A DNA stretch of 64,000 nucleotides from NCBI GenBank assembly GCA_003645455.1, contig QNFE01000004.1, positions 3,406 through 67,405 on the forward strand, read 5' to 3'. Both the position numbers and the translations under genes were made by a program. Position 1 is the stretch's first letter, and every line of letters begins with the position of its first letter. Source of the DNA: Gammaproteobacteria bacterium. GTDB taxonomy: Bacteria; Pseudomonadota; Gammaproteobacteria; QNFE01. Below are positions 2,711-60,852 of the stretch, piece by piece. The notes below the pieces were generated by a model, which saw only the letters and a program-made list of their open reading frames with translations, was not told the origin of the DNA and did not search any database.

Positions 2711-2721
2711 TTTTTTATTTT

Positions 2722-3036: not shown

Positions 3037-3109
3037 AAATTGATTGTTTAAATAATTTTTATCTGAAACTATTTTTCTTCCTATCTCTTTTTCTGTGTTC
3101 TCTCGTGCA

Positions 3110-3856: not shown

Positions 3857-3887
3857 TTTTTTATTTTCTATTTGTTAAAAGCATTAT

Positions 3888-4023
3888 ATCATTGTGCCAA
3901 TCGTAGGGGCGGATTCCATATCCGCCCGTTTATGGTGTTCCGCATTCATCAATTTTTTAAAATCCGTATTGTTGCGGGCGGATATGGAATCCGCCCCTAC
4001 ATTTAATTTATCGTCGTTGGATA
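3888..4023. repeat. REP/BIME-like palindromic doublet, copy 2 (extended ~136 bp unit)
   Basis: ATCATTGTGCCAATCGTAGGGGCGGATTCCATATCCGCCCG...CGGGCGGATATGGAATCCGCCCCTACATTTAATTTATCGTCGTTGGAT. It is ~98% identical to copy 3. Confidence 0.8.
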
Positions 4024-4044
4024 ATTTTTGCCCCATTTTTATAG

Positions 4045-4623: not shown

Positions 4624-4737
4624 TTTTCAATTCTCCATTGTTTTAAATGTTTTTTTATTTGCCAACCTTTTTTTAGTTGACGATTAGTTTTTGCATTTTC
4701 AATTTTCAACTCCGCCTCCGTTTGTTTTTAATTCGTT

Positions 4738-4873
4738 ATCATTGTGCCAATCGTAGGGGCGGATTCCATATCCGCCCGTTTATGGTGTTCCACATTCATC
4801 AATTTTTTAAAATCCGTATTATTGCGGGCGGATATGGAATCCGCCCCTACATTTAATTTATCGTCGTTGGATT
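4738..4873. repeat. REP/BIME-like palindromic doublet, copy 3
   Basis: Same ~136-bp unit as copy 2, lying between hsdM and hsdS. Confidence 0.8.
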
Positions 4874-4888
4874 ATTTGTTTTTGTTTT

Positions 4889-6346
4889 TCACAATAAACC
4901 TTTAATTTCTTTTAAAATATTTGCACTTTTTTGATCCAATTCTGCCATATTTTTTAATATTTCGGCAGGTTTTCGCAATGGTGTCTCTTGTGGTGCATTG
5001 GGGTTTTTGGCGGACAAATCATAGGTTTTTTGGTCTAATTTTTCAGTATTTATTATCCACGAATTTGGGCTTGTTTTTTTGGTTTTTTGCAATTTTAAAA
5101 ATTCGCTTAAATCATTAGTATTTAATGGATTGGTTTTGCCAAGGTTGCGCTCTAAATTCAACTGATAAAACCAAATATCTGTGGTGGGTTTGCCTTTTTT
5201 GAAAAACAACACGACTGTTTTTACCCCGGCCCCTGTGAATGTGCCAGACGGTAAATCCAAAATTGTATGCAAGTTGCATGAATTTAATAACTCGTGTCGC
5301 AAAGCGATTGAGGCATTATCAGTATTGCTTAAAAATGTATTTTTTATGACAACTCCTGCCTTGCCACCTGCTTTGAGGATTTTTATAAAATGTTGTAAAA
5401 AAAGCGAGGCGGTCTCGCCGGTTTTAATAGGGAAGTTTTGTTGCACCTCGGCTCGCTCTTTGCCGCCAAATGGTGGGTTTGCTAAAATTATATCATAACG
5501 GTCTTTTTGTTGGATATCGTTGATATTCTCTGACAGGGTATTGGTGTGGATAATGTTAGGGGCTGATATGCCGTGCAAAATCATATTCATAATGCCGATA
5601 ATATAAGCTAATGATTTTTTTTCTTTGCCGTAAAAAGTTTTTTGTTGTAATGTTGTGGTGTCACTTGTGGATAACCCACCTGTGGCACTATTTTTTAAAT
5701 AATCAAAAGCTTCAATTAAAAAACCTGCCGAACCTGCCGCTCCATCATAAACTGTGTTGCCTATTTTAGGGCTCACTACGCGGACGATGGTTTTTATCAA
5801 GGCTCGTGGTGTGTAATATTCACCACCATTGCGCCCGGCATTACCCATATTTTTTATTTTGCCCTCATATAGATGGCTCATTTCTAATTGTTCGGCATGG
5901 GTTTTAAAACGCAACTCATTAATAAGATTTATTATCTCTCGTAGGTTATAACCACTTTGAATTCTGTTTTTTAACTCGTTAAAAATTTGCCCTATTTTAT
6001 ATTCAAGGGTATTAGCAGAGCTGGCATTATTTTTGAATTTTTTAAAATATGGGTATAATTTGTTATTAACAAAATCTAATAAATCATCGCCTGTTAAAGA
6101 GTTGTGATCAATTTTACCATTTTTTAATTTGGGGGCAGCCCAGATTTGCCATTGAAACTCTTTTTTAATTATTTGTTGATATTCGGTATCAGACAATTCA
6201 GCAATTTTTATTTTATCTTGCTCCAAATCATCTAAGTATTTTAAAAACAAAACCCACGAGGTCTGCTCGATATAATCTAACTCGCTACTGCATCCTGCAT
6301 CTTTGTGCAAAATATCGTCAATATTTTTAAAAGTTTGGGTAAACAT
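4889..6346 (-). CDS. hsdM: Type I R-M N6-adenine DNA methyltransferase subunit HsdM
   Basis: Carries the N6-adenine MTase catalytic motif NPPFGG (gamma-class layout, as in HsdM). Size and operon context with hsdS/hsdR fit. Confidence 0.9.
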   Translation of the reverse strand: MFTQTFKNIDDILHKDAGCSSELDYIEQTSWVLFLKYLDDLEQDKIKIAELSDTEYQQIIKKEFQWQIWAAPKLKNGKIDHNSLTGDDLLDFVNNKLYPYFKKFKNNASSANTLEYKIGQIFNELKNRIQSGYNLREIINLINELRFKTHAEQLEMSHLYEGKIKNMGNAGRNGGEYYTPRALIKTIVRVVSPKIGNTVYDGAAGSAGFLIEAFDYLKNSATGGLSTSDTTTLQQKTFYGKEKKSLAYIIGIMNMILHGISAPNIIHTNTLSENINDIQQKDRYDIILANPPFGGKERAEVQQNFPIKTGETASLFLQHFIKILKAGGKAGVVIKNTFLSNTDNASIALRHELLNSCNLHTILDLPSGTFTGAGVKTVVLFFKKGKPTTDIWFYQLNLERNLGKTNPLNTNDLSEFLKLQKTKKTSPNSWIINTEKLDQKTYDLSAKNPNAPQETPLRKPAEILKNMAELDQKSANILKEIKGLL

Positions 6347-6368
6347 TTTTTATCCTATTGTTTGTATG

Positions 6369-6394
6369 CGGTCTGATATGGAATCAGCCCCTAC
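6369..6394. repeat. Half-unit of the REP-like element (degenerate)
   Basis: GGTCTGATATGGAATCAGCCCCTACA resembles the right arm of the REP unit. It lies between the hsdM start and the dnaE stop. Confidence 0.5.
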
Positions 6395-6408
6395 ATTTTT
6401 TGTGTTTT

Positions 6409-10478: not shown

Positions 10479-11396
10479 TTAAAATTTAAAATGCTGTGGC
10501 AGATCGGCTACAAAATTATATTTTTTACTGATTATAATTTGGCTTGAATGTAAGTATAAATTATTTTTTTGCTCGTTTTCAAAGTTTTTATTATATTTAT
10601 CATCCCCTATGATGGGGTGTTTAAAGTGGGATAAATGCAGACGAATTTGGTGGGTTCTACCGGTTTCAATTCTAATTTTTAAGAGACTTGTATTATTGTT
10701 GATATATTGACAATTTAAAATATGGGTAATCGCTTGTTTGCCTTTGGGGTTGATTTGCATAAATTTCTCACCATTTCGCAGATTTTTTTTATCCATGGCT
10801 TTGTCAATTTTAATAATTTTTTTATCCCATAAACCTGCCACACGAGCATAATAAATTTTTTCAATTTTACGAGATTTAATTAGAGTCTGAATCTTTTTTA
10901 AAAAATGATAATTTTTTGCTATCAATAACACCCCGGTTGTTTTTTTATCCAAACGATGAATTAACTCATAATCATTATTGATACCAGATTTGATTGCCTC
11001 AATAATCCCCCATTTTATATTGCTACCGCCGTGGACACTAATATTAGCAGGTTTGTTTAAAACCAAAATATCGTCATCCTCAAAGATTATAGATTTTTTT
11101 ATTAAATCTACCATCGCAGAGGGGGCTTTTTTGGTAGCTGTATCGGTCATTCTAACAGGTGGTATCCGCACCATATCGCCTGTTTTAATTTTATAAAGTG
11201 GTTTACATCTTTTGGAATTTACTCGCACCTGTCCGGTCCTGATTATTTTATAAATCAAGGATTTAGGAGCAGGTTTCAAAAAATTTAATAAAAAATTATC
11301 TAACCTTTGTCCTGCCTGCTTGTTATAAACTTCAATATTTTTAACTGATGAATTTGTCATTATTGTATTTAATTTTTTTAAAACAATATTATACAT
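10479..11396 (-). CDS. RluA-family 23S rRNA pseudouridine synthase (RluC/RluD-like, with N-terminal S4 domain)
   Basis: The catalytic motif HRLDKKTTGVLLIAKN is present. The S4-like N-terminus is (QRLDNFL..IRTGQVRVN). Confidence 0.8.
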   Translation of the reverse strand: MYNIVLKKLNTIMTNSSVKNIEVYNKQAGQRLDNFLLNFLKPAPKSLIYKIIRTGQVRVNSKRCKPLYKIKTGDMVRIPPVRMTDTATKKAPSAMVDLIKKSIIFEDDDILVLNKPANISVHGGSNIKWGIIEAIKSGINNDYELIHRLDKKTTGVLLIAKNYHFLKKIQTLIKSRKIEKIYYARVAGLWDKKIIKIDKAMDKKNLRNGEKFMQINPKGKQAITHILNCQYINNNTSLLKIRIETGRTHQIRLHLSHFKHPIIGDDKYNKNFENEQKNNLYLHSSQIIISKKYNFVADLPQHFKF

Positions 11397-11484
11397 AATT
11401 GTCAGATAAGAATATTAAAAATCTTAAACTAACTGGTTTTATAAAAAATACATTATGAATTGGATCTTATGGTTAAAAGTGGGT

Positions 11485-11781
11485 TTACAACTGGGTTATC
11501 TTGCCATATAGGTTTTTAGCCATGGTTTCAACCTTGGTATATTCGTTCTGTTGCAAAAGCCTCAACACTATGATCATTTTCGTTATCGACAATCTGCCCC
11601 TACATTTATGTTTTTTTGGTTTCACGACTCTGCCCCATATTGATTCGTATATTTTTGGACTGTGGCATGGGTTCTCATATCCCAAAGCTTTACCGACTTG
11701 ATTAGTTGTTAAATAAAAGTCATTGTTAGGTTGAATGACATCCATATTTTCGTCATTGAAGTTAGCTGTAAGTTTGTTCAT
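11485..11781 (-). CDS. Hypothetical protein (possible Bro-N/KilA-N fragment)
   Basis: The N-terminal LTTNQVGKALGYENP weakly resembles a Bro-N start. The rest of the protein is not recognisable. Confidence 0.3.
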   Translation of the reverse strand: MNKLTANFNDENMDVIQPNNDFYLTTNQVGKALGYENPCHSPKIYESIWGRVVKPKKHKCRGRLSITKMIIVLRLLQQNEYTKVETMAKNLYGKITQL

Positions 11782-11952: not shown

Positions 11953-12067
11953 CGTCACTGCGAGCGAACTTGTGAGCGTGGCAGTCTCTTTGGGTGTCCG
12001 TATACTACGATAAGATTGCCGCGTCATTTGCCTTGTGGCAAACTCCTCGCAATGACGGATTCTTTTT
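11953..12067. repeat. MITE-like element, family 2, copy A (~115 bp, 12-bp imperfect terminal inverted repeats CGTCACTGCGAG / CTCGCAATGACG)
   Basis: It shares termini and a GTGGCAGTCTCT core with the copy at 39732..39828. It ends in ATTCTTTTTTTG. Confidence 0.6.
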
Positions 12068-12223
12068 TTGTTTTTAAATTTTAAAAAGGCTATTATGATT
12101 GATAAAAAACCCACTAACATTAACCAAATTTTAGACATAATATTCCTCATCAATAATTTTTAAAATAAAACCTCTTCGCTGGGTTATCTTGTAACAAAAT
12201 AAAAGAAAAGAATAAAATATATT

Positions 12224-12255
12224 GAGGCCTTTGCATAAAACCTGAAAAGGTCTCA
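12224..12255. repeat. Miniature (32 bp) derivative of MITE family 1 (TIR-TIR hairpin TGAGGCCTTTGCAT...TGAAAAGGTCTCA)
   Basis: Both ends match the family-1 terminal inverted repeat. It is flanked by ATATAT on both sides. Confidence 0.5.
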
Positions 12256-12371
12256 ATATATTCAATATTTGTTAAAAACTATCCTTAAATTATGAAATCT
12301 TGACAGAATTTGTAAGTGACGGTTAAAAATTTATGCTACAATAGTCATTTTTTGTTTTGGAGAGAACTTTT

Positions 12372-15229: not shown

Positions 15230-15335
15230 TTCCCCTGGTCTTGTTATTGGAGTGCTCCGATACGGAATTCATCCATAATACACAGGTGGCACCGTTATAC
15301 AGATAGATGTTTCAATCAAGTTCAGCATGACGGTG
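15230..15335. repeat. Left dsr-flanking repeat (related, in inverted orientation, to 26419..26500)
   Basis: It shares GATACGGAAT...CAAGTTCAGCATGACGG termini with the reverse complement of the right-flank repeat. Confidence 0.5.
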
Positions 15336-15642
15336 ACTGCAAACTTTTCTTGATATACCCATAAATAGATATATATAATTGTTTGTTTATCTACTTTGCA
15401 CTTGATAAATAAAAAATAATAAAGTATAATTCGCAAATTATTATAATTATGAAACCTTTGTTTTAAAAAGTTACATTGTTACATATGTTTTATAAACTGT
15501 GCTTAAACATACAAAGATTTCACGATAAATTATAAAAAACAAATTTAATATTTTAATAAAGTTGTTCATTTTTTTTATAAAATTTTTTAAAAATGAGCAA
15601 CATTATTAGTATATTTATCTTATCATAAATGAGGACATAAAA

Positions 15643-16887
15643 ATGGCAGAGCAATTTAAAACTCCAATGTTGGATGAGTTAGAAAAAGGTCCATGGCCTA
15701 GCTTCATCTCTGGTTTTAAAAGACTAAGAGACGATCACCCAGACAAAAGAATCAATGAGACCGCAAATTCTTTGTTGGGACAATTAGAGCACTCCTATGA
15801 AACTCGCAAGGGTTACTGGAAAGGTGGCACAGTCTCTGTATTTGGTTACGGATCTGGAATTATCCCTCGTTTTTCTGAGGTAGCCGACACTTTTGTAGCA
15901 TCAAAAGAATTTCATACCGTTCGGGTGCAACCACCTGCGGGCAACCATTATACCACCGATATGCTTCGCACTTTGTGTGATAGTTGGGAAAAATACGGAT
16001 CTGGTTTAATAACCTTTCATGGGCAAACAGGCAACATAATGTTTATTGGGGTTGACACAGAAAACACCCAAAAATTCTTTGATGAGATTAATGAATACGG
16101 TTGGGATCTTGGCGGTGCAGGCCCATGTGTTAGAACTGGTATGTCTTGTATGGGAGCCGCTCGTTGTGAGATGTCTTGTGCCGATGAGCAACAAATTCAT
16201 TTAAGATTGATGAATAATTTTACGGATGATGTCCATCGTCCCGCTTTGCCTTATAAATTTAAATTTAAAGTTTCAGGCTGTGGTAATGATTGTCAAAATG
16301 CGATTGAAAGATCAGATATGGCAATTCTTGGCACTTGGCGTGATGATATGAAAGTAAATCAGACCGAGGTTAAAAACTATATCAATAAAAAATCTCGTCA
16401 GTATGTCATAGATAATGTTACAACTCGTTGTCCTACTAATGCACTGACTTTAAATGATGATGACACCTTGACGGTTGATAATAAAAACTGTGTGCGCTGT
16501 ATGCATTGCTTAAATGTTATGAATAAAGCTCTAAGCCCAGGTGATGATAAGGGTGTGACCATTTGTATCGGTGGCAAACGAACTTTGAAAATTGGTGATT
16601 TGATGGGAACTGTGGTAATCCCATTTAAGAAATTAGAAACCGAAGAGGATTATGAATCTTTGGTAGAGTTTGCCGAAGATATTATTGATTTTTGGGCTGA
16701 AAATGGTTTGGAACACGAGAGAACAGGCGAGATGATAGAAAGAATTGGAATAGCTAATTTCTTAGATGCAATTGGAGTTGAAGTTGATCCAAATATGATA
16801 AATCATCCACGTCAAAGCTCATATGTTCGTCTTGACGAATGGGATGCCGAAGCGCAAAAATGGTTTGAACGAAAAAAAGCCGCTTAA
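15643..16887 (+). CDS. dsrA: Reverse dissimilatory sulfite reductase alpha subunit
   Basis: 414 aa with siroheme/Fe-S cysteine clusters. It is first in a dsrABEFHCMKLJOP series and preceded by RBS GAGGA. Confidence 0.9.
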   Translation: MAEQFKTPMLDELEKGPWPSFISGFKRLRDDHPDKRINETANSLLGQLEHSYETRKGYWKGGTVSVFGYGSGIIPRFSEVADTFVASKEFHTVRVQPPAGNHYTTDMLRTLCDSWEKYGSGLITFHGQTGNIMFIGVDTENTQKFFDEINEYGWDLGGAGPCVRTGMSCMGAARCEMSCADEQQIHLRLMNNFTDDVHRPALPYKFKFKVSGCGNDCQNAIERSDMAILGTWRDDMKVNQTEVKNYINKKSRQYVIDNVTTRCPTNALTLNDDDTLTVDNKNCVRCMHCLNVMNKALSPGDDKGVTICIGGKRTLKIGDLMGTVVIPFKKLETEEDYESLVEFAEDIIDFWAENGLEHERTGEMIERIGIANFLDAIGVEVDPNMINHPRQSSYVRLDEWDAEAQKWFERKKAA

Positions 16888-16921
16888 ATTTAATTTATAC
16901 AAAAAATAGGAGATAATAAAA

Positions 16922-18001
16922 ATGTCAGAAAATACTAAACCTCGCTCACCTACCGAATCAGGATGCCCTGACGGTTTTCAATACATGCACCCACTTATGC
17001 GTAAAAATTATGGTAACTGGGATCATCACGACCATCCTCGTCCAGGAGTCTTAAAACACGTCTCAAAAGACGGCGAGCCAATTTGGACTGTAAAATGTGC
17101 TACTCAAAGAATCTTAGATACTTTTTCACTGCGAACCTTATGTGATATAGGTGACAATTTTGCCGATGGCCATGTGCACTTTACAATGCGCTCTAATATT
17201 GAATATATGGTAGCAGATGAGGCAAAAGTTCAACCTCTAATAGAAGAGATTGAAAAAAATGGTTTTATAGTCGGTGGCACAGCAGCCTCTGTTTCATCAA
17301 TATCTCATACCCAAGGATGGTTACACTGTGACATTCCAGGCACTGATGCCTCAGGTGTTGTAAAGTCAATGATGGATGAGTTAATTGATGAATTTAAAAA
17401 TCATAATATGCCAAATAGAGTTCATATTACAACCTCTTGTTGCCAGATAAATTGTGGCGGACAAGGAGATATAGCTATCAATGTCCAACACACCAAACCA
17501 CCAAAAATTGATCATGACTTGGTTGGTAATGCTTGTGAGAGACCATCTGTGGTAGCTCGTTGCCCGGTGGCAGCTATTCGCCCTGCGGTCGTAAATGGCA
17601 AACCATCATTAGAGGTGGATGAGAAAAAATGTATCTGTTGTGGAGCATGTTTTCCACCATGTCCTCCGATGCAAATCAATGATGCCGAACATACTAAACT
17701 TGCAATCTGGGTTGGTGGCAATCACTCAAACGCTCGTAGCAAGCCAACATTCCAAAAATTAGTAGCAGCGGGAATCCCTAATAATCCACCAAGGTGGCCG
17801 GAGGCGACTGCCATTGTTAAAAAAATATTAAAATGTTATAAAGAAGATGGTAGACCTTGGGAGCGAATGAATGACTGGATAGAACGGATTGGTTGGCCGG
17901 CATTTTTTGAACAAACAGGATTACCTTTTACTAAATTCCATCTTGATAACTGGCGTGGTGCTAGAAATAGCCTTAATGCTTCAAATCATGTTCGTTTCTA
18001 A
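16922..18001 (+). CDS. dsrB: Reverse dissimilatory sulfite reductase beta subunit
   Basis: 359 aa with conserved Cys clusters, immediately downstream of dsrA. Confidence 0.9.
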   Translation: MSENTKPRSPTESGCPDGFQYMHPLMRKNYGNWDHHDHPRPGVLKHVSKDGEPIWTVKCATQRILDTFSLRTLCDIGDNFADGHVHFTMRSNIEYMVADEAKVQPLIEEIEKNGFIVGGTAASVSSISHTQGWLHCDIPGTDASGVVKSMMDELIDEFKNHNMPNRVHITTSCCQINCGGQGDIAINVQHTKPPKIDHDLVGNACERPSVVARCPVAAIRPAVVNGKPSLEVDEKKCICCGACFPPCPPMQINDAEHTKLAIWVGGNHSNARSKPTFQKLVAAGIPNNPPRWPEATAIVKKILKCYKEDGRPWERMNDWIERIGWPAFFEQTGLPFTKFHLDNWRGARNSLNASNHVRF

Positions 18002-18016
18002 AAAGAGAGTTTATTT

Positions 18017-18409
18017 ATGAAATTTTCAATTCAAATTAATGAAGGGCCATATCAACATCAAAGCTCTGATACTGCCTATCAATTCACTAAGGCTGCATTA
18101 GAAGCAGGGCATGAAATTTTCCGGGTATTTTTTTATCATGATGCTGTGAATGTTGCGACTCGTTTAGCGATTCCACCCCAGGACGATAGAAATATCACCA
18201 AACTTTGGCAAGAGTTAGCAGAGCAACATAAATTAGATCTGGTAGTGTGTATAGCCGCCGCCCAAAGACGCGGATTATTGGACGAGGCAGAGGCAAAACG
18301 CCAAGGCAAGGATGCTAATAATATTGCCACAGGGTTTCGTATCTCAGGGTTAGGTCAGTTAATAGAAGCTGGCATTCAAGCCGATAGACTGATTGTTTTT
18401 GGAGATTAA
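18017..18409 (+). CDS. dsrE: Sulfurtransferase DsrE
   Basis: 130 aa. MKFSIQINEGPYQHQSSDTAYQF is near-identical to the recalled Allochromatium DsrE N-terminus. Confidence 0.9.
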   Translation: MKFSIQINEGPYQHQSSDTAYQFTKAALEAGHEIFRVFFYHDAVNVATRLAIPPQDDRNITKLWQELAEQHKLDLVVCIAAAQRRGLLDEAEAKRQGKDANNIATGFRISGLGQLIEAGIQADRLIVFGD

Positions 18410-18414
18410 ATAAT

Positions 18415-18819
18415 ATGGCAACTAAGAAATTTATGTATGTAAATCGTAAAGCTCCCTATGGCACAGTTTATGCTTTGGAGTCTTTGGAAGTAGTTTTAAT
18501 TGGAGCGGCCTTTGAACAGGATGTATCAGTAGCATTTATGGACGATGGTGTTTATCAACTTGTCAAAGGGCAAAAAACTGATGGCATTGGCATGAAAAAC
18601 TTCTCTCCTACTTATGCAGCCTTGGGTGATTATGAGGTGACTAAAATCTATGTGGATAAAGATTCTATGAAAGAGAGAAATCTAAGTCTTGATGACTTAC
18701 AGCATTTGGTGTGGGAAGATGAAGATGAAGACTATGCTGAAAAAAATTCAATAAAATTAGTGTCTCGTGATGAGTTGGCAAAAATATTGGACGAACAAGA
18801 TGTCTTACTTAACTTTTAA
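18415..18819 (+). CDS. dsrF: DsrF
   Basis: 134 aa DsrE/F-fold protein, second in the dsrEFH triplet. Confidence 0.85.
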   Translation: MATKKFMYVNRKAPYGTVYALESLEVVLIGAAFEQDVSVAFMDDGVYQLVKGQKTDGIGMKNFSPTYAALGDYEVTKIYVDKDSMKERNLSLDDLQHLVWEDEDEDYAEKNSIKLVSRDELAKILDEQDVLLNF

Positions 18820-18831
18820 AGGATAATAAAA

Positions 18832-19140
18832 ATGTCAATGTTACACTTAGTAAATAAATCACCATTTGAAAAAAATTCATTAAAAGTTGCGATAAGTTGT
18901 GCACTTAATAAGAGTGCGATTCTAATGATTGAAGATGGTGTATATGGTGCGGTATCTGATGCAAAACATAGCGATATGGTAAAAACTGCTATGAATAAAT
19001 CAGATTTTTATGTGTTAAAAGAAGATACACAAGCAAGAGGAATAGATGAATCAAAAATAATTGACGGCATACAACTTGTTGATTATGCAGGTTTTGTGGA
19101 ACTTAGCACAAAATACGATAAGATTCAATCTTGGGTTTAG
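18832..19140 (+). CDS. dsrH: DsrH
   Basis: 102 aa, third in the dsrEFH triplet. Confidence 0.85.
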   Translation: MSMLHLVNKSPFEKNSLKVAISCALNKSAILMIEDGVYGAVSDAKHSDMVKTAMNKSDFYVLKEDTQARGIDESKIIDGIQLVDYAGFVELSTKYDKIQSWV

Positions 19141-19180
19141 TTTAGTTTTTAGTTTTTTTAATTTTTTAAGGTAAAATATT

Positions 19181-19513
19181 ATGGCAATTGAAGTAAATGG
19201 CACAAGTTATGAGACGGACGAAGAAGGATATTTAACAGATCTTAGTCAGTGGAATAAAGATATCGCCAATAAAATGGCAGAAGCAGAAGATGCAGAGCTC
19301 ACAAGTAATCACTGGGAAGTTATCAGTTTTTTGCGTGAGTATTATGAAGAGTATCAAATCGCCCCTGCGGTGCGAGTTTTAACCAAAGCAATTGGTAAAA
19401 AACTTGGCAAAGACAAAGGTAACAGCAAATATCTATATGAGTTATTCCCATATGGTCCTGCTAAACAGGCTTGTAAGTATGCAGGCTTGCCAAAACCAAC
19501 TGGTTGCGTTTAA
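19181..19513 (+). CDS. dsrC: DsrC (TusE-like sulfur carrier)
   Basis: 110 aa. The C-terminal arm ...ACKYAGLPKPTGCV carries the two conserved cysteines, including the penultimate Cys. Confidence 0.9.
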   Translation: MAIEVNGTSYETDEEGYLTDLSQWNKDIANKMAEAEDAELTSNHWEVISFLREYYEEYQIAPAVRVLTKAIGKKLGKDKGNSKYLYELFPYGPAKQACKYAGLPKPTGCV

Positions 19514-19562
19514 GTAAGGTCTGATTGACTGCCAAAAAACAACAAATGCAGTTATTATTATA

Positions 19563-19584
19563 ACAAGGGGACATGTCCCCTTGT
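19563..19584 (+). terminator. Perfect 22-nt palindrome ACAAGGGGACATGTCCCCTTGT downstream of dsrC (putative attenuator/partial terminator)
   Basis: GC-rich perfect hairpin 50 nt after the dsrC stop, followed 40 nt later by a second weaker hairpin with a T-run (19620..19650). Confidence 0.35.
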
Positions 19585-19680
19585 TAGCAGTTATTCAGAA
19601 CTTACCTTAGCAATATTATTACTCGCTCTTTTTTTTTAAAGAGTGAGCGATTATAATATAAAAATTAAGGCAACAATCAT

Positions 19681-20409
19681 ATGACATTTATCATAGCGGG
19701 ATTCTATTATATAGCTTTTATTATTTTTGTGGGCGGAGTGCTCTTAAAAATCAAACAATACTGGACTACTCCTGCTCCTATTAAAATTCCTACTACCCCC
19801 GCACCGACAACTCGTTTGGGTGTTTTATATCGGATGGGAAAAGAGATTATCGTATTTGAGAGTCTTTTCAAATCCAACAAATGGATTTGGATTTTTGGTT
19901 GGCTTTTTCACTTTGGGATGTTCGCTGTTTTATTTCGTCATTTAAGATATTTTCTTGATCCTGTGCCTGTTATCGTAGTTATGATGCAACCGCTTAAATA
20001 TGCAGCTTTTGCGATGTTAATTGGTTTATCAGGTTTATTATTTCGGCGAATTTTTGTCGCAAGAATTAGATATATTAGCGACCCCTCAGATATTTTAATG
20101 TTAATTCTTATGTTAGGAATTGGCATAAGTGGCACTATGATGACATTTTTTGGTAATGTTGATATTGTTGCTACCAAATCATTTTTTATTGGAATTTTAA
20201 CCTTTAATTTTCAGCCATTTCCCACCCACCCTATGTTACTTATTCATTTAATTTTGGTGGCTGTTTTAATGTTGATTTTTCCATTTAGCAAACTTTTGCA
20301 TGCCCCTGGAATTTTCTTTTCACCTACCCGTAATCAGGTTGATAATGCTCGAGAAAAAAGACATATCGCCCCGTGGGCTGCCAAATTAGACAAAACGAGG
20401 AGTGTGTAA
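19681..20409 (+). CDS. dsrM: DsrM (NarI-like di-heme b membrane protein)
   Basis: 242 aa polytopic membrane protein at the DsrM position. Confidence 0.8.
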   Translation: MTFIIAGFYYIAFIIFVGGVLLKIKQYWTTPAPIKIPTTPAPTTRLGVLYRMGKEIIVFESLFKSNKWIWIFGWLFHFGMFAVLFRHLRYFLDPVPVIVVMMQPLKYAAFAMLIGLSGLLFRRIFVARIRYISDPSDILMLILMLGIGISGTMMTFFGNVDIVATKSFFIGILTFNFQPFPTHPMLLIHLILVAVLMLIFPFSKLLHAPGIFFSPTRNQVDNAREKRHIAPWAAKLDKTRSV

Positions 20410-21940
20410 AATGGCAGATTTTGACATCCCAGCTTATCGCACTATAAAAATAATCCCCAAACCAGTTGAGGGGACTATGGCACATGTTAAACCATACTTT
20501 GCCAAACCAGAACACCAAGAGGCATTAGGATTTCCAGGAGAAAAACCTGAAAATTGGAAACAAATTGCGATTGATAAATTAGGAGAGATTGTCAAAAAAT
20601 ATAAATCCGTGGCTTTGTTTATGGATATATGTGTCAAATGTGGCTCATGCACGGATAAGTGTCATTATTATATCGGCACCTCTGATGCTAAAAATATGCC
20701 AGTTGCTCGTCAAGACTTATTACGCAAGGTATATCGGCGATATTTTACCTTTGCAGGTAAATATTTTCCATGGTTGGTCGGAGCCGTTGATTTAACCGAA
20801 GAGATAATTGATGAATGGTATGTATATTATCATCAATGTTCTCAATGTCGCCGCTGCTCTGTTTTTTGCCCTTATGGCATAGATACTGCCGAGATATCAA
20901 TGGCTGCCAGAGAAATTTTAGATGCCATCGGTATCGGACAAAAATATTGTAATGAAATTCTCGGTAAGGCACAAAAAATTGGTAATAATTTAGGTTTGCC
21001 AGGTCCTGCTTTGGAAAATACTCTGGAGGGATTAGAAGAAGATATAGAAGATGAAACCGGAGTTGTCGTTAAAATGCCTCTTGATGTCAAGGGTGCTGAT
21101 ATTCTATTAGTGACTCCATCTGCTGATTTTTTTGCCGAACCGCATATTGACGGTTTAATAGGTTATGCTAAGGTTTTTCATGCCGCAGGGGCAAGCTGGA
21201 CTATGAGCACCTATGCATCGGAGGCGGGAAACTTTGGAATGTTCATCGGCAATTATGCCAATACCCAAAAACTAACAATGAGAATCCGCAAAGCAGCCCT
21301 TGATTTAGGGGTTAAAAGATTAGTTTTTGGTGAGTGCGGACATGCTTGGCGAGTTGCTTATAGTTTTATGAATACGATGGCAGGTCCATTTGACTTTTTA
21401 GACCCAAAATATCCGGTGCCAGAGCATATTTGCGAATATACTAATAACTTAATAGAGGCAGGAAAACTAAACTTAGACCCATCATTAAATGATGATATGG
21501 TTTTAACTTTTCATGACTCTTGTAATATCGCTCGTGGTTCTCGGATGGGTAAAAAAGCAGGCGGACAATTTGAGATACCGCGTGCTGTTATCAAAGCTGT
21601 ATGTAATAATTATGTTGATATGCCACATGATACCATCAAAGAGGTAACTTTTTGTTGTGGTGGAGGTGGCGGTTTATTGACAGATGATATCATGGAAGTG
21701 CGTGTCAAAGGCGCTTTGCCGAGAATGGAGGCATTAGATGAGGTAACACGTGAACATGGAGTCACTCATATGGCAGCCATTTGTGCTATATGCAAAAGTC
21801 AGTTCACCAAAGTAATTCCATACTATGGTTTTTCCATGGATCAAATTGTCAGCATCCATCAATTGGTAAGCAATGCAATTATCTTAGACGGACAACAAAC
21901 AGAATCAACAACAGAACCTGATAAAAAATCAGCGGATTGA
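20402..21940 (+). CDS. dsrK: DsrK (HdrD-like Fe-S/CCG-domain catalytic subunit)
   Basis: 512 aa with CxxCxxC ferredoxin motifs and C-terminal CCG-type cysteine repeats. Its start overlaps dsrM. Confidence 0.85.
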   Translation: MCKMADFDIPAYRTIKIIPKPVEGTMAHVKPYFAKPEHQEALGFPGEKPENWKQIAIDKLGEIVKKYKSVALFMDICVKCGSCTDKCHYYIGTSDAKNMPVARQDLLRKVYRRYFTFAGKYFPWLVGAVDLTEEIIDEWYVYYHQCSQCRRCSVFCPYGIDTAEISMAAREILDAIGIGQKYCNEILGKAQKIGNNLGLPGPALENTLEGLEEDIEDETGVVVKMPLDVKGADILLVTPSADFFAEPHIDGLIGYAKVFHAAGASWTMSTYASEAGNFGMFIGNYANTQKLTMRIRKAALDLGVKRLVFGECGHAWRVAYSFMNTMAGPFDFLDPKYPVPEHICEYTNNLIEAGKLNLDPSLNDDMVLTFHDSCNIARGSRMGKKAGGQFEIPRAVIKAVCNNYVDMPHDTIKEVTFCCGGGGGLLTDDIMEVRVKGALPRMEALDEVTREHGVTHMAAICAICKSQFTKVIPYYGFSMDQIVSIHQLVSNAIILDGQQTESTTEPDKKSAD

Positions 21941-21978
21941 TTTTAAATATTTATACAATTAAATTTTAGGAGAATTTT

Positions 21979-23958
21979 ATGGCAGTAGAATTAAAAATAA
22001 CAGACAACAAAATAACCTATCTTCGTTTTCGTGATGGTGACAGCAAGTATAAGAGTTATTCAAACAAATATTTGAATGAAGATAAATCATACAAATGTCC
22101 TACATATGTGCACAAAACTCCACCTTGTCAAGGATCATGTCCATCTGGCCATGATGTTCGTGGCTGGCTTGATATAGTGCGTGGGATTGAAAAACCAACC
22201 GGTGATAAAAGTTGGCAAGAATATGCTTTTATGAGAATGACCAAAGCTAATCCATTTCCATCTATTATGGGGCGTGTATGTCCTGCTCCTTGTGAGAGCG
22301 GTTGCAATAGAAATGAGATAGAAGATAAAGTCGGTATCAATTCAGTGGAACAATTTATCGGTGACTATGCTAACGAACATAATTTTCAATTTGCAAAACC
22401 TGCCAATAAAACAGACAAAAAAGTAGCCATTATAGGTGGCGGTCCAGGAGGGCTGGCAGCGGCATACCAGTTAGCAAAATTAGGCCATAACATAACAATT
22501 TTTGAAGAATTGGAAAAGCTTGGCGGTATGATGCTCTATGGTATTCCAGGTTATAGAGTGCCAAGAAAATCGTTAGAGACCGAAATAAACAGAATTTTAT
22601 CACTTGGCATTGAGGTTAAAACTAATACTCGTGTTGGCCAAGATATAAGTCTGGATGATTTAGAAAAAAATTATGATGCAGTCGTGTGGGCGATTGGCAC
22701 CCATAAATCTCGCAACCTACCAGTTGATGGTTTTGATAAAGCTACAAACTGTTTGGGTGGTGTTGAGTTTTTACGAGCCTTTAATGAGGGCAAATTACAA
22801 AGTTCTGCTAAAAAAGTTGTTGTTGTTGGTGGTGGTGATACCTCAATTGATGTCGCCTCCGTCTCTCGCAGGATAGGTTATGTAGAAGGTAGTGCACCTG
22901 CCGAAGATGTATTATCAGGTAAAGCTGTCCATAATGTTGCTAAAGATTCAAAAAGAGAGGACTCAGATGTCACTTTGACCTCACTTTTCCCACTTGAAAA
23001 TATGACAGCCGCAGAACATGAAATTAACGATGCTATACGAGAGGGCATAGATATAAAAGCAGGAGTTATGCCATTGAAAATGATAATTGATAATAACGGT
23101 CGTGCTACGGCAATGAAGTTATGTAAATGCACAATGGATGGCGAGCGTCCCATTAAAACAGAAGGCACGGAATTTGAAATCAAAGCAGATTTATTTGTTG
23201 CTGCCATAGGTCAAGCAGGAGACATGACAGGCTTAGAGAGCATAGATAATGGTAAGAGCTTTATTGATGCGGATAATTTTTATCAAGTAAAAGATAAACA
23301 GGGGCATTTCGTTTGTGGTGATATTGTTCGTCCGCATCTTTTAACAACTGCAATCGGGCAAGCATCAATTGTCTCAGATGGTGTGCACTCTTATTTATCA
23401 GGAGAAGATATAGGAAAAAGACCAAAGGTTGATGTTCATCATTTTAGTTTGTTAGAAAAATTAAAAGAACACAACTTATATCCAGAAGACTTTGTCGGTA
23501 ATCAAGAGGATACGGACGCTAAAAATGATACTGAATTTAATGGTCATCGTGGCACAGATACTGCAAAATATGCTGTGCATAACTACGAAAATCGCTCTAA
23601 ACACGAAATTGTAGAACACGAAGAACTGTTTTTAGGGCATTTTGCCTATGAGCCAAGGAACAAAAGAGACTCCAAAGAAATCGGGGCAGATGAAGTCTTA
23701 GGCAACTTTGAAGAGAGATTAATTTGTTTGAATGAGGAGACAACCCAAAAGGAGGCGGGTAGATGTATGAGTTGTGGGATGTGTTTTGAATGTGATAATT
23801 GTGTAATTTTTTGTCCGCAAGATGCTATTTTTAGAGTTAAAAAAGATAGCAAAACCACTGGTCGTTATGTCGATACTGATTATAATAAATGTATTGGTTG
23901 TCATATCTGTGCTGATGTATGTCCGACAGGTTATATTGAAATGGCAATGGGGCATTAA
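21979..23958 (+). CDS. dsrL: DsrL (NAD(P)H:acceptor oxidoreductase, GltD-like, with C-terminal ferredoxin domain)
   Basis: 659 aa with FAD/NAD binding GGGPGG, a GltD-like core and a C-terminal 2x[4Fe-4S] motif. Confidence 0.85.
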   Translation: MAVELKITDNKITYLRFRDGDSKYKSYSNKYLNEDKSYKCPTYVHKTPPCQGSCPSGHDVRGWLDIVRGIEKPTGDKSWQEYAFMRMTKANPFPSIMGRVCPAPCESGCNRNEIEDKVGINSVEQFIGDYANEHNFQFAKPANKTDKKVAIIGGGPGGLAAAYQLAKLGHNITIFEELEKLGGMMLYGIPGYRVPRKSLETEINRILSLGIEVKTNTRVGQDISLDDLEKNYDAVVWAIGTHKSRNLPVDGFDKATNCLGGVEFLRAFNEGKLQSSAKKVVVVGGGDTSIDVASVSRRIGYVEGSAPAEDVLSGKAVHNVAKDSKREDSDVTLTSLFPLENMTAAEHEINDAIREGIDIKAGVMPLKMIIDNNGRATAMKLCKCTMDGERPIKTEGTEFEIKADLFVAAIGQAGDMTGLESIDNGKSFIDADNFYQVKDKQGHFVCGDIVRPHLLTTAIGQASIVSDGVHSYLSGEDIGKRPKVDVHHFSLLEKLKEHNLYPEDFVGNQEDTDAKNDTEFNGHRGTDTAKYAVHNYENRSKHEIVEHEELFLGHFAYEPRNKRDSKEIGADEVLGNFEERLICLNEETTQKEAGRCMSCGMCFECDNCVIFCPQDAIFRVKKDSKTTGRYVDTDYNKCIGCHICADVCPTGYIEMAMGH

Positions 23959-23961
23959 TAG

Positions 23962-24330
23962 ATGAAAAATTGGCTACTTTTAATGAGTTTTTTTGTATCG
24001 TTTGCAATTCATGCAGATGATAACAATTCATACTTGCCAAAAGCAAAAGCCGGCACAAAATGTGTGGAAGACCGACAAATTATGCGAACCAATCATATGG
24101 ATTTAATCTTACATCAACGAGATAAAACTATGCGAGATGGCAAAAGAGACGGCAGACACTCTTTAAAAGAGTGTATAAATTGCCATGTAACAAAAAATGA
24201 TAAGAATGAATATCCAAATATTGACTCATCACAACATTTTTGTAACTCTTGTCATACCTATGTTGCTGTTAAAACTGATTGTTTTTCTTGCCACCGTTCT
24301 ATCCCTGAAAACAAACAGGTAAAAAAATGA
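23962..24330 (+). CDS. dsrJ: DsrJ (periplasmic tri-heme cytochrome c)
   Basis: Signal peptide plus three CxxCH motifs (CINCH, CNSCH, CFSCH). Confidence 0.85.
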   Translation: MKNWLLLMSFFVSFAIHADDNNSYLPKAKAGTKCVEDRQIMRTNHMDLILHQRDKTMRDGKRDGRHSLKECINCHVTKNDKNEYPNIDSSQHFCNSCHTYVAVKTDCFSCHRSIPENKQVKK

Positions 24331-25046
24331 ATAAATTAAACCGCCGAGAATTTATCAAAAAAACTACAAATACTGCTGCCATAAGTATTTTACCTGGTGT
24401 TTTTTTGCAAACGGTAAATGCTAAAGGTGCTGATGTTAAAAATCGTTGGGGGATGTTGATTGATACTCGTGGATGTGGTGACTGTAAAAATGAGTGCATA
24501 ACAGCCTGTCATAGCGAACATGCGGTAAAAAGCTTTGATCGCCCCCAAACAGACAGCCAATGGATAAGAAAAGTTACAGTTAAAAACAGAAAAACTTCCC
24601 ACACAATGGCGTTACCTATAATGTGTCAACATTGTGAAAAACCTGCTTGTGTTGATGTTTGTCCTACTGGTGCATCATTCAAACGTGTCGACGGCATAGT
24701 TTTGGTTGACCGGCATATTTGTATCGGTTGTCGTTACTGTATGATGGCATGCCCTTATAAAGCTCGTAATTTTGTTCATGAGAATCTTAGTGAACAAAAT
24801 ACCATATCTCCTCGTGGCAAAGGCACAGTGGAGGCTTGCACGATGTGTGTTCACAGAATAGACAAAGATGGAGCAAAAGCTAAAACTGCTTGTCAACAAG
24901 CATGCCCTAAAAATTCTATAATTTTTGGTGATTTAAATGATAAAAATAGTGGTATATCAAAAAAATTAAAAGCAATGGGTGCCAGACAAATTAGAGCAGA
25001 TTTAAACCTAAATCCTGCTGTATTATATCAAGGGTTGGACTTATGA
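24327..25046 (+). CDS. dsrO: DsrO (Tat-exported 4Fe-4S ferredoxin-like subunit)
   Basis: Twin-arginine-like NRREFIKK leader and multiple Cx2Cx2Cx3CP motifs. Its stop codon is supplied by the first 3 nt of a mini-MITE. Confidence 0.85.
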   Translation: MNKLNRREFIKKTTNTAAISILPGVFLQTVNAKGADVKNRWGMLIDTRGCGDCKNECITACHSEHAVKSFDRPQTDSQWIRKVTVKNRKTSHTMALPIMCQHCEKPACVDVCPTGASFKRVDGIVLVDRHICIGCRYCMMACPYKARNFVHENLSEQNTISPRGKGTVEACTMCVHRIDKDGAKAKTACQQACPKNSIIFGDLNDKNSGISKKLKAMGARQIRADLNLNPAVLYQGLDL

Positions 25047-25114
25047 AACCTTTGCATAATTCAATCACAATTTATAACAACAATAAAATGCACCTGAAAT
25101 ATGAAAAGGTCTCA
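25044..25114. repeat. Internally deleted (71 bp) copy of MITE family 1 exactly filling the dsrO-dsrP intergenic space
   Basis: TGAAACCTTTGCATAATTCAATCACAATTTATAACAA...AAATGCAC...TGAAAAGGTCTCA. The termini match the family-1 TIRs and the interior matches the full copies (CACAATTTATAAAACAAATA, AAATGCAC). It is flanked by TTA/TTA. Confidence 0.6.
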
Positions 25115-25116
25115 TT

Positions 25117-26331
25117 ATGAAAAAACAAACATCATTTAGTCAATTTTCTAATAATAGTTTTTTTTACTGGTCTTTGTTAGTTTTATTCGGTGGCATAATT
25201 TTGATAGGTTTGCTCGCAGTGCATCAAATGGAACATCACGGACATCATATCACAGGGATGAGTCAACAAATAGTCTGGGGTTTGCCTCATGTTTTTGCTA
25301 TATTTTTAATTGTCGCAGCCTCGGGTGCTTTAAATATCTCATCTATGTCATCGGTATTTAATCGAACTCATTATAAACCTCTATCTCGTTTGAGTGCCAT
25401 GTTATCAATTTGCCTGCTCGCAGGTGGTTTGGCAGTTTTAGTGCTTGATTTGGGTCGTCCCGATCGGCTAATTGTTGCGATGACTCATTATAATTTTAAA
25501 TCAATTTTTGCTTGGAATATAATTTTATATAACGGTTTTTTTGCTATTGTTTTTGTTTATATTTGGATGATGATGGAACAAAAAATGAATAAGTTTAGCA
25601 AATTAGCGGGCTTTTTTGCTTTTCTTTGGCGTCTGATATTAACCACAGGAACCGGCTCAATTTTTGGCTTTTTGTTTGCCAGAGAGGCATATGATGCGGC
25701 TATTATGGGGCCGATGTTTGTTATAATGTCTTTCTCGTTTGGTTTGGCATTTTTTATGTTGGTGATGGGATTGTTATATAAATTAGACGGCAGGCAAATT
25801 GGCGATTATGTTTTTAATAAACTTCGCAAATTACTGGGTGTATTTATCGCTGCTGTGCTTTATTTTGTCATCGTTAAACATTTGACAAATCTATATGCCG
25901 CCGAACACACAGATATGGAATATTTTATGCTTTTTGGTGACAACATCTACACTCAACTTTTTTGGTATGGGCAGGTGTTATTAGGTGGTTTATTGCCACT
26001 GATTATGCTCTATGGTCCGCTGTGTAAAAAATCTCGTTTGACAGGGTATTTGGCTGCTTTTCTGGTTGTATTAGGTGGCCTGATTCAGATTTATGTAATT
26101 GTTATCGGTGGACAAGCCTATCCTTTGGTGCTGTTCCCTGGGATGGAAGTTACCAGTTCCTTTTTTGACGGAACTATCAACTCATATATACCATCAAAAT
26201 ATGAAATTGCTCTGGGGGTTTCAGGTGTTGCTATCACTTTATTAGCCATAGTTTTTGCCAGTCGCATTTTACCAGTGGCAGCCGACAACCTATCAGATGA
26301 GTATGTTAATCCACACTTTAAGAAAAAATAA
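25117..26331 (+). CDS. dsrP: DsrP (NrfD/PsrC-like integral membrane quinone-interacting subunit)
   Basis: 404 aa with ~10 TM segments, last gene of the dsrMKJOP module. Confidence 0.85.
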   Translation: MKKQTSFSQFSNNSFFYWSLLVLFGGIILIGLLAVHQMEHHGHHITGMSQQIVWGLPHVFAIFLIVAASGALNISSMSSVFNRTHYKPLSRLSAMLSICLLAGGLAVLVLDLGRPDRLIVAMTHYNFKSIFAWNIILYNGFFAIVFVYIWMMMEQKMNKFSKLAGFFAFLWRLILTTGTGSIFGFLFAREAYDAAIMGPMFVIMSFSFGLAFFMLVMGLLYKLDGRQIGDYVFNKLRKLLGVFIAAVLYFVIVKHLTNLYAAEHTDMEYFMLFGDNIYTQLFWYGQVLLGGLLPLIMLYGPLCKKSRLTGYLAAFLVVLGGLIQIYVIVIGGQAYPLVLFPGMEVTSSFFDGTINSYIPSKYEIALGVSGVAITLLAIVFASRILPVAADNLSDEYVNPHFKKK

Positions 26332-26374
26332 ATGACATTAACTGCTTGAATCCTATGTATTTTAGTTTCATCTG

Positions 26375-26431
26375 TCATGCTGAACCACCTACTCCGTCAT
26401 GCTAAACCACCTACTCCGTCATGCTGAACTT
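26375..26431. repeat. Tandem 22-mer array (GTCATGCTGAACCACCTACTCC x2.5)
   Basis: Direct contiguous copies, one with a single substitution. Confidence 0.8.
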
Positions 26432-26489
26432 GATTCAGTATCCATTCATCCAGCAAGATATTCCATGTCTCATAGATAGATTCCGTATC

Positions 26490-26590
26490 AAGCACGGAAT
26501 GACGAGAAAGAACAAAGCACGGAATGACGAGAAAGAACAAAGCACGGAATGACGAGAAAGAACAAAGCACGGAATAATGAGAGTGAGAGG
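26490..26590. repeat. Tandem 25-mer array (AAGCACGGAATGACGAGAAAGAACA x3 + diverged partial copy)
   Basis: Three perfect contiguous copies then AAGCACGGAATAATGAGAGTGAGAGG. Between the two arrays lies a unique segment related to the left dsr-flank repeat. Confidence 0.8.
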
Positions 26591-26660
26591 TTTAATTTAC
26601 TTTGATAACTTTTGTTAGTGGTTATGAAGAGGATATTGTCATGATATAAAATAGAGTTTT

Positions 26661-30845: not shown

Positions 30846-31210
30846 AATTTAGATCTCCATTAAAGTAAAAAACTCCCATTATAAATCGTTTTTTTTTTGC
30901 AAATTTTTTTTGCTACAAAACAAGAAAAATCCAAACTCGGGGTTTGAAATTTTCTTGTTTTGTGTTATTTATAAGAAATTTTTGCTATCAAAGTTCTGTT
31001 TTAATTGTTGGTTATCACCTAAGCCACATGAGTGCCATCTGAGGCCAAAGTAAAGTTATCTATTTTGCCTGTGTGGAAAAAGTTGTCCTGTTTGGGCGTT
31101 TGACAATAATGGAGTGGCAATAACAGCAACAGCAGATGAATTAAGTTGGTTAGTTTCATCTTCATCATTGCTACAAGAATATAATACAACAAACAAGAAT
31201 AATGGTAAAA

Positions 31211-31371
31211 TGAGACCTTTGCATAATTCAAGCACAATTTATAAAACAAATAGATTGCATATGCTTATAGCAAAAATTCGTCAAAGGGCTTGCCATATTC
31301 CTCATTTTTGTTATAAAAATGCACTATTTTTTGCATTCTCTAAACAGCACTTGAATTATGCAAAGGTCTCA
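31211..31371. repeat. MITE family 1, full-length copy (161 bp; TIR TGAGACCTTTGCATAATTCAAGCAC)
   Basis: Terminal inverted repeats of ~24 bp. The internal sequence is ~90% identical to the copy at 60853..61014 in the same orientation and to 50901..51062 in inverted orientation. Confidence 0.85.
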
Positions 31372-31433
31372 AAATATATTTGATGAATTGCATAAAATCT
31401 CCTAATCAAAAAAAAACGATTGCCAATTATTTT

Positions 31434-39731: not shown

Positions 39732-39828
39732 CCGTCACTGCGAACGAGCCGCGGCGAAGTGTGGCAGTCTCTTGTTGTTATTCGTATACCACGATGAGAT
39801 CGCTCCTCGCGATGACGTATTCTTTTTA
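39732..39828. repeat. MITE-like element, family 2, copy B (shorter, ~97 bp)
   Basis: CCGTCACTGCGAACGAG...GTGGCAGTCTCT...CTCCTCGCGATGACGTATTCTTTTTA has the same termini and core as 11953..12067, with a ~22-nt internal deletion. It lies where ruvB would normally follow ruvA. Confidence 0.6.
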
Positions 39829-46179: not shown

Positions 46180-46224
46180 ATTTTTATTGTTGTTTAACTT
46201 TTAATGTTATTTTTTGTTGTATTA

Positions 46225-50895: not shown

Positions 50896-50900
50896 AATTA

Positions 50901-51062: not shown

Positions 51063-51063
51063 A

Positions 51064-60850: not shown

Positions 60851-60852
60851 AA

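Follow-up and report, generated by a model that had tools for sequence, protein, structure and literature searches.

The dsr gene cluster and its flanking repeats

The window analysed here is a stretch of 64,000 nucleotides (nt; 64 kb) from contig QNFE01000004.1 of a sulfur-oxidising gammaproteobacterium, and it carries the gene cluster dsrABEFHCMKLJOP between two repeat loci. A preliminary description of this DNA had given the same gene order, which was borne out by the open reading frames (ORFs) and Pfam, and had remarked on the lack of dsrN and dsrR; a tblastn search with the DsrN and DsrR of a relative as queries found no homologue of either anywhere in the window. The cluster is preceded by genes for acetyl-CoA synthetase (acs) and a radical-SAM protein, and followed by genes for the CCA-adding enzyme (cca) and an NMO-family oxidoreductase. 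The left repeat locus begins 26 nt past the stop codon of the radical-SAM gene, and the right one begins 43 nt past that of dsrP. The analysis identified both, very probably, as head-to-head heterodimers of CGTC-tagged repetitive extragenic palindromic (REP) hairpins, which belong to the family of the Neisseria repeats dRS3/NTS. The features concerned are as follows.

15242..15333, no strand assigned: decayed B-spacer-A dimer, in the orientation opposite to the right copy (20-mer search, MAFFT, covariance model, DNA fold)
15643..26331, + strand: dsrABEFHCMKLJOP, lying between the two REP loci and not itself part of a mobile element (ORFs, Pfam)
26374..26416, + strand: two outward half-unit A copies, each GTCATGCTGAAC plus the 10-nt spacer CACCTACTCC, which make up the 22-nt array (Tandem Repeats Finder (TRF), sequence search)
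26417..26444, + strand: CGTC-REP unit A, CGTC-ATGCTGAA-CTTGA-TTCAGTAT-CCA (covariance model, DNA fold)
26445..26476, no strand assigned: spacer of the head-to-head dimer, 32 nt (sequence)
26477..26504, − strand: CGTC-REP unit B, CGTC-ATTCCGTG-CTTGA-TACGGAAT-CTA (covariance model, DNA fold)
26505..26582, − strand: three outward half-unit B copies, reading AAGCACGGAATGACG plus GAGAAAGAAC on the + strand, which make up the 25-nt array (TRF, sequence search, repeat finding)

Anatomy of the two repeat loci

The results showed that the right flank from 26374 to 26582 is a single symmetric element, in which two hairpin units lie 32 nt apart with their tags pointing outward. On the + strand the order is GTCATGCTGAAC plus CACCTACTCC twice, unit A, the 32-nt spacer, unit B on the other strand, and then three times a spacer followed by ACGGAATGACG. 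The CGTC tags occupy 26417-26420 on the + strand in unit A and 26504-26501 on the − strand in unit B. The stems of unit A (ATGCTGAA/TTCAGTAT) and unit B (ATTCCGTG/TACGGAAT) each comprise 8 bp including one G-T pair, both enclose the loop CTTGA, and the tails are CCA and CTA, respectively; both hairpins were recovered by DNA folding.

The 22-mer and 25-mer tandem arrays, which had been reported in the preliminary description as potential slipped-strand loci or iterons, are real. TRF delimited the 22-nt array at 26374-26429 (2.5 copies, 94% matches, score 105) and the 25-nt array at 26490-26582 (3.7 copies, 97% matches, score 172). The reiterated piece consists of CGTC, the 5′ arm, the first loop base and a short spacer, and it is repeated outward on both sides of the dimer; the outermost half-unit B copy, in the array at 26505..26582, has diverged. 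Because each array repeats, in the outward direction, the half of the neighbouring hairpin that bears the tag, the two arrays are not separate loci, and what stands of the earlier account is that they exist and may well grow by slippage.

The left locus is a remnant of a dimer of the same kind. Its part B′ (15242-15270) is about 72% identical to unit B in a by-eye alignment, and its part A′ (15304-15333) keeps the outer 20 nt exactly; both inner arms are mutated, and DNA folding gave neither hairpin. The 20-mer AATCAAGTTCAGCATGACGG was found at exactly two sites in the 64 kb, 15314-15333 (+) and 26416-26435 (−), with 0 expected from 100 shuffles, and the 10-mer GATACGGAAT at 15259-15268 has its reverse complement at 26481-26490. 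The inverted shared termini thus span 15259-15333 and 26416-26490, which confirms related repeats on both flanks with coordinates shifted by 1-8 nt from those first reported; the base preceding AATCAAG, formerly written as A or G, is C in the left copy and G in the right one. The longest identity between the flanks is 20 nt. Between the termini the alignment is weak, with a mean column identity of 66% (MAFFT, over 129- and 141-nt stretches including unaligned flanks), and therefore the hairpin units are shared and the spacer not clearly so.

A covariance model (R1), trained on 104 distinct units that all came from other genomes, scored unit A at 40.3 bits (E 8e-8) and unit B at 38.3 bits (E 2.5e-7). 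The left remnant A′ reached 14.9 bits (E 0.17), and the rest of the window stayed at noise.

Assignment to the CGTC-tagged REP family

According to Di Nocera, De Gregorio & Rocco (2013, BMC Genomics 14:522), a CGTC REP is made up of a CGTC tag, for which the variants TGTC and CCTC are allowed, a stem of 8-9 bp whose first pairs are almost always A-T and T-A, a loop of 4-5 nt and a CCA-like tail. The units occur mostly as head-to-head dimers with the tags outside and spacers of 20-100 nt, often as heterodimers, and are present in many copies per genome, mainly downstream of ORFs. Units A and B have the CGTC tag, an 8-bp stem opening with A-T and T-A in which one G-T pair occurs, the same 5-nt loop, outward tags, a heterodimeric arrangement, a spacer of 32 nt and a location downstream of ORFs; the tail, mostly CCA in the family, is CCA in unit A and departs from it by one mismatch in unit B. 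The same text already reports such repeats from sulfur-oxidising Gammaproteobacteria (Halothiobacillus neapolitanus). The window differs in its uncultured gammaproteobacterial host of low GC (~34%) and in the low density of copies, and the outward tandem half-units are a feature of the window, whereas the accessible text mentions whole units or dimers reiterated with flanking DNA.

As set out in that paper, CGTC-1 corresponds to Neisseria dRS3, and CGTC-1 and CGTC-4 to the Rickettsia repeats RPE-6 and RPE-4. The superfamily also covers the 'Ssn-related motifs' (SRM). Neisseria dRS3/NIME, which belongs to the same superfamily, consists of 20-bp ATTCCC-N8-GGGAAT units alternating with RS elements of 50-150 bp, whereas the window units read ATTCCG-N9-CGGAAT and ATGCTGAA...TTCAGTAT and are unaccompanied by RS elements, and the window is without the Nf-type phage or IS110-type recombinase. 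The REPIN/RAYT system of GTAG REP doublets resembles the window loci in having two inverted hairpins in intergenic, multi-copy positions that decay to remnants, but the tag on the dsr flanks is CGTC, not GTAG, and no Y1 transposase/RAYT was found in the window. No RAYT is known for CGTC REPs, unlike GTAG-tagged REPINs, and according to Di Nocera et al. no transposase is known for the family. Rickettsia RPEs often lie in frame inside genes, whereas the window copies are all intergenic.

Rfam searches with the window, with the right flank (E up to 10) and with six family loci returned no family for the element, and no relevant literature match was found for the raw repeat sequence or for peptides of the spurious ORFs derived from it. 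Counting covariation among the family units is circular, the units having been preselected for pairing; it does show many different stems set in an invariant GTC-A...T-C frame.

Distribution in other genomes

With one genome per species, the 18-mer TCAAGTTCAGCATGACGG of unit A was detected at no fewer than 118 genome loci, against about 17 expected by chance. Among the matches listed, the hosts include Rickettsiales, Sphingomonadales, Rhodospirillales, Bacteroidota, Treponema, Armatimonadota, Patescibacteria, Campylobacterota and Elusimicrobiota, besides others; Rickettsia and Megaera genomes are among those carrying it. The upstream bases complete the hairpin in 101 of the 123 listed matches, and 79 of the 123 have, on the same strand and no more than about 100 nt upstream, the kind of GTCAY tag that a convergent partner would show. 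A unit scanner (GTC plus a palindrome starting A-Y) found 270 units among the listed 18-mer loci and 9 after shuffling. In these loci neighbouring units are convergent in 76 of 120 pairs, most convergent pairs being 11-48 nt apart, and the units fall in convergent or tandem gene gaps (42 and 77) far more than in divergent ones (13). The elements occupy intergenic DNA, in most cases a short distance after a gene, and the window copies do likewise.

In metagenome contigs, exact unit A occurs in at least 12 copies in unrelated contigs, and exact unit B in at least 2 (our loci L140 and L209), its perfect-stem form being present at least 18 times. The contigs with exact units A or B range from 31 to 59% GC, and the partner unit differs each time. 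A degenerate pattern aimed in the metagenomes at the subfamily of this genome also caught common canonical units. The preliminary description had named a repeat scattered without relation to dsr as the finding that would tell against it, and at the level of the family this is largely what the scans revealed.

Outward arrays of half-hairpins

Reiteration of the tag plus 5′ arm on the tag side was observed in 24/280 and 14/248 full units of two independent samples, where well under one per sample is expected by chance, and for 29 of the 38 the nearest copy lies at a distance of 16-27 nt. Reiteration on the inner side occurs in only 9 and 5 units of the two samples, and in a control the 3′ arm plus tail was reiterated 5 times outside and 4 times inside. 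In the following loci both units of the dimer carry arrays.

Window, 26374-26582: half-unit array
L122, 10905-11560: half-unit array
L139, 1630-1810: half-unit array
L142, 1690-1830: half-unit array
L189, 320-720: half-unit array

Arrays on both sides of a dimer are found in Gammaproteobacteria, Alphaproteobacteria, Spirochaetota, Bacteroidota and Elusimicrobiota. The junction falls directly after the stem or one base into the loop, and next comes a C/A-rich spacer with a CCAC-like core that recurs in unrelated genomes. The accessible parts of Di Nocera et al. (2013) and Chenal et al. (2025, Nat Commun 16:2388) contain no description of half-hairpin arrays. We considered that the loss of one hairpin arm might have left the tail and inner spacer behind as the half-unit spacer; for unit A the comparison of CACCTACTCC with CATTCATCC looks suggestive, and for unit B the resemblance is weak.

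The regular periods of 22 and 25 nt, about two helical turns, and the conserved core in every unit are what iterons for a dsr-specific regulator or for a replication or partition protein would present, and the preliminary description had offered protein-binding iterons as one reading of the arrays. The core, however, is identical to the tagged half of the REP hairpin next to it, the arrays lie downstream of the operon and not at the promoter, the same architecture recurs beside unrelated genes in many phyla, and the arrays of the closest relative are built from different units, all of which makes iterons very unlikely.

Comparison with related dsr clusters

The closest relative with the cluster is L122, whose DsrK is 89% identical. 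Its cluster also ends at dsrP, and behind it stand two elements that share the architecture but consist of other units, CGTCATTCCCGCGTAGGCGGGAATC and the partner CGTCATGCCTGCGGAGGCAGGCATC. In this region (10905-11560) six units of the family were identified, with half-unit arrays that are longer than those of the window and have up to about 8 reiterated halves; beyond them lie the unrelated genes for BamD, shikimate kinase and LapAB. L122 also carries exact ATTCCC-N8-GGGAAT units (ATTCCCGCGTAGGCGGGAAT). As in Neisseria dRS3/NIME, the position of the repeat cluster is kept between the window and L122 and its content turns over. On the other side, the first bases of the L122 contig correspond roughly to the end of the left remnant in the window and directly precede a conserved motif of the promoter region; a contig start at this point suggests that a repeat lies before dsrA in L122 as well. 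The REP-dsr-REP layout is probably kept in this relative. In more distant relatives (DsrK 76-78%), dsrN-dsrR follow dsrP and no REP units are found there.

Synteny between the window and L122 ends after dsrP, at the REP site. In this lineage REP sites are found at the ends of the conserved dsr block, and the one after dsrP marks a break in synteny. These observations fit the view that rearrangements come to an end in REP-rich gaps, or that such gaps tolerate repeats and breakpoints alike.

Two further observations concern these clusters. In the more distant relatives L123-L128, a conserved divergent block beside dsrA encodes a TauD-family dioxygenase, a 63-67 aa ORF, a protein that matches Pfam Cas6 (PF09559) and a second DsrC-like protein, and dsrP is followed by dsrN-dsrR and a GAF histidine kinase/response regulator pair, except that in L123 the kinase/regulator pair lies upstream of the divergent block and that L128 ends before dsrP; the divergent block, dsrN-dsrR and the kinase/regulator pair are all absent from the window. 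Upstream of dsrA, a motif is conserved between the window (~15357-15405) and L122 (~13-58), the rest of the promoter region having diverged. It consists of ATAAATAGATATA, 12-15 nt and TTATCTAyTTTGCAC, with an inverted TAGATA/TATCTA pair, and it may be an operator of the dsr promoter.

Possible functions and alternative explanations

A mechanism for the family is offered by the Neisseria system. As reported by Chenal et al. (2025), NTS, the oriented form of dRS3, is bound as single-stranded DNA (ssDNA) by the 94-aa GIY-YIG nuclease SsnA and cut about 3 nt upstream of the tag, as read from oligonucleotide lengths; the halves of the hairpin may be provided in trans; SsnA lowers transformation by donor DNA with the layout NTS-gene-NTS; and in Neisseria the family modulates recombination of incoming DNA. 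SsnA homologues with related motifs are widespread, and ssn-like genes often adjoin the motif. The window loci resemble this system in a hairpin with an orienting upstream GTC and a C after the palindrome, and in the 'repeat-gene(s)-repeat' layout; the window organism is not known to be naturally transformable. In both units GTC stands directly before the palindrome and C directly after it (GTC-A...T-C), and these bases are critical for cutting or binding in the NTS system. The same columns are invariant in the 104 family units, for which GTCA had been required at selection. Moreover, Ssn-like GIY-YIG genes adjoin units of the CTTGA-loop type in 8 loci (L012, L013, L021, L088, L095, L121, L196 and L243).

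By analogy, an Ssn-type mechanism may also operate in the window organism, which we put forward as a tentative possibility. Each unit would fold to an 8-bp hairpin in ssDNA, and a small Ssn-family GIY-YIG nuclease, if encoded beyond the window, would attach to this hairpin and cleave the strand a few nt before the tag. Cleavage of this kind would shorten ssDNA that is incoming or exposed, so that the segment between the units would recombine less, and each reiterated half could pair with the single 3′ arm, giving an alternative cut site. As to the arrays themselves, they probably expand and contract by slipped-strand events or unequal exchange between the reiterated halves. That the outward arrays represent a general growth mode of CGTC REPs and the footprint of a propagation mechanism, namely a nick of the Ssn type just upstream of the tag together with synthesis stalled at the hairpin apex, with REP-dsr-REP serving as an ssDNA-restriction fence that limits recombination across the operon, is unlikely.

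Taken as a whole, we consider it likely that generic CGTC-REP dimers lie on both dsr flanks, the right one intact and the left one a remnant, and that the arrays are half-hairpins, an Ssn-type ssDNA role, drawn from homology, being the tentative part of this explanation. Several results weigh against this explanation. No ssnA was found in the 64-kb window by a pattern search or by tblastn (best E 0.35), nor in the 16 kb of L122 (cd10448 GIY-YIG, ~90-100 aa). The published SRM pattern HGTCWYN(0-2)YYVSBRHN(0-5)WNVSBRGN(0-2)RNCYNB has 0 matches in the window and in L122; it was derived from G+C-rich stems, the window stems being A+T-rich, and in the listed 18-mer loci it has 29 matches against 8 after shuffling. 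The folding energies are ordinary for AT-rich hairpins (z = −1.1 and −0.5; RNA and DNA), and the explanation does not account for the first half-unit in each array. Finally, the dsr flanks are the only two places in the window with the CTTGA-loop type, an outcome to which we give a chance probability of about 5% by our own estimate, taking two copies of one type among about 40 inter-operon gaps, where any two copies bracket something.

Among the alternatives, a chance similarity of the flanks has virtually no standing. The central spacers of the two copies are indeed weakly similar, and nothing further supports it, but an exact 20-mer occurring twice where none is expected, within pieces that both follow one known unit architecture, already refutes it. 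The preliminary description had suggested a past mobilisation or recombination boundary, and the two halves of this suggestion fared differently. If the repeats were the terminal inverted repeats of a composite element that brought dsrABEFHCMKLJOP in, or had mediated an inversion, inverted copies on each side of the cluster would be expected, as found; the cluster also lacks dsrNR, which the more distant relatives keep after dsrP, and its flanking genes differ between the window and L122. Nevertheless, we regard this as highly improbable. No transposase, integrase, Y1_Tnp/RAYT or GIY-YIG gene is present among the 67 window ORFs of at least 70 aa (Pfam), and neither a recombinase gene nor the pairing of a transposase or recombinase with recognised terminal repeats that marks a composite transposon was found within the 64 kb. 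The repeats are generic REP units of many phyla, with four loci in this window, and are therefore not the ends of a mobile dsr cassette. Each locus is a pseudo-symmetric dimer, so that relative orientation means little; only 20 and 10 nt are common to the two copies, the left one being decayed. The neighbours acs, radical SAM, cca and NMO are housekeeping genes, GC content and skew reveal no compositional island, and the proteins closest to DsrK are Thiotrichales-like and share 77-89% identity with it, in keeping with vertical descent. Mobilisation of dsr by the flank repeats is thus unsupported, while a REP-marked rearrangement or recombination boundary is plausible in view of the L122 synteny that ends at REPs.

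The elements might instead act as RNA, as proposed for classical REPs, namely as 3′-UTR hairpins that end or stabilise the dsr and radical-SAM mRNAs. Both loci start 26-43 nt past a stop codon, the family is enriched between convergent and tandem genes, many units are argued to be transcribed by Di Nocera et al. (2013), and on the + strand, that of the dsr mRNA, unit A has a G-U wobble as its imperfect pair. On the other hand, no terminator-like site or U tract was found, the RNA fold of 26360-26600 is not stabler than shuffled sequences (z = −0.5), the left copy has lost both hairpins, Rfam gave no match, and SsnA of N. meningitidis does not bind the RNA form according to Chenal et al. (2025). 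An RNA-level role appears unlikely on balance; it is compatible with the ssDNA reading, the two being non-exclusive.

Other repeats and genes in the window

The window contains four CGTC dimers in its 64 kb, two of these loci lying just past stop codons and one between convergent genes. The two outside the dsr flanks are the following.

11953..12057, no strand assigned: head-to-head CGTC-REP dimer of the long-loop GTCAyTGCGAG type (covariance model and sequence scan)
39733..39817, no strand assigned: head-to-head CGTC-REP dimer of the same long-loop type, between convergent genes

These long-loop dimers read CGTCACTGCGAnCGA...GCAGTCTC with a partner unit, and their spacers are similar (CGTATACyACGATrAGAT). 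A possible lone half-unit, CCGTCATAACGAGG, was noted at about 11839.

GTAG-tagged REP-like hairpins of the form GTAG-GGGCGGAT-TCCAT-ATCCGCCC occur on the minus strand at 3006-3037, 3973-4004, 4823-4854 and 6367-6398, with a partial copy at 11591-11621. Three of them lie inside a 141-nt repeat present in three copies (2920-3060, 3887-4027 and 4737-4877), which sit between the genes of a type I restriction-modification (R-M) locus (hsdR, a Bro-N protein, hsdS and hsdM). Both REP superfamilies therefore coexist in the window, with no RAYT gene in it. A third kind of repeat is an element of about 170 nt that resembles a miniature inverted-repeat transposable element (MITE), with the terminal inverted repeats TGAGACCTTTGCATAA...TTATGCAAAGGTCTCA. 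Its three full copies (31208-31375, 50897-51065 and 60850-61018) are 83-91% identical to one another, and short hairpin-like derivatives lie at 25041-25116 and at about 12223-12258. The former fills the 70-nt dsrO-dsrP gap, and the short-read contig L003 starts inside it.

The short-read contigs of the same organism break inside the right element, at window 26442 and 26546 (L003 and L251). Beside the left locus, L002 ends at window 15373 and the contig of the relative L122 at about 15345. Contig ends in or beside REP elements fit multi-copy repeats. The only other assemblies of this organism (L003, L251 and, on the left, L001/L002) stop inside or beside the repeats, three assemblies breaking at the elements, and the array copy numbers given here are those of the window assembly.

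Defence and toxin genes are also abundant in the window. At 44517-47640 there are two genes for N6/N4 DNA methylases, one of which carries a fused HNH nuclease domain; they are separated by an unannotated ORF of 237 aa, and a MotA/ExbB-like protein is encoded directly after them. The type I R-M locus occupies 341-6346 and a HipA/HTH pair 61087-62505.

Significance

The conspicuous inverted repeats around this 11-kb operon are a ubiquitous REP-type dimer and are not evidence for a mobile dsr cluster, which corrects the earlier view of the locus. A low-GC, sulfur-oxidising gammaproteobacterium is thereby added to the hosts of CGTC REPs, and the right element provides a clean example, with parallels in other phyla, of dimers growing outward by the tag-bearing half only. 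Since CGTC REPs have no known transposase and the Ssn nuclease that cuts beside the tag was described only in 2025, polar arrays of this kind may help to show how such repeats arise and spread. There is a small chance that they will reveal something new about the growth of CGTC REPs.

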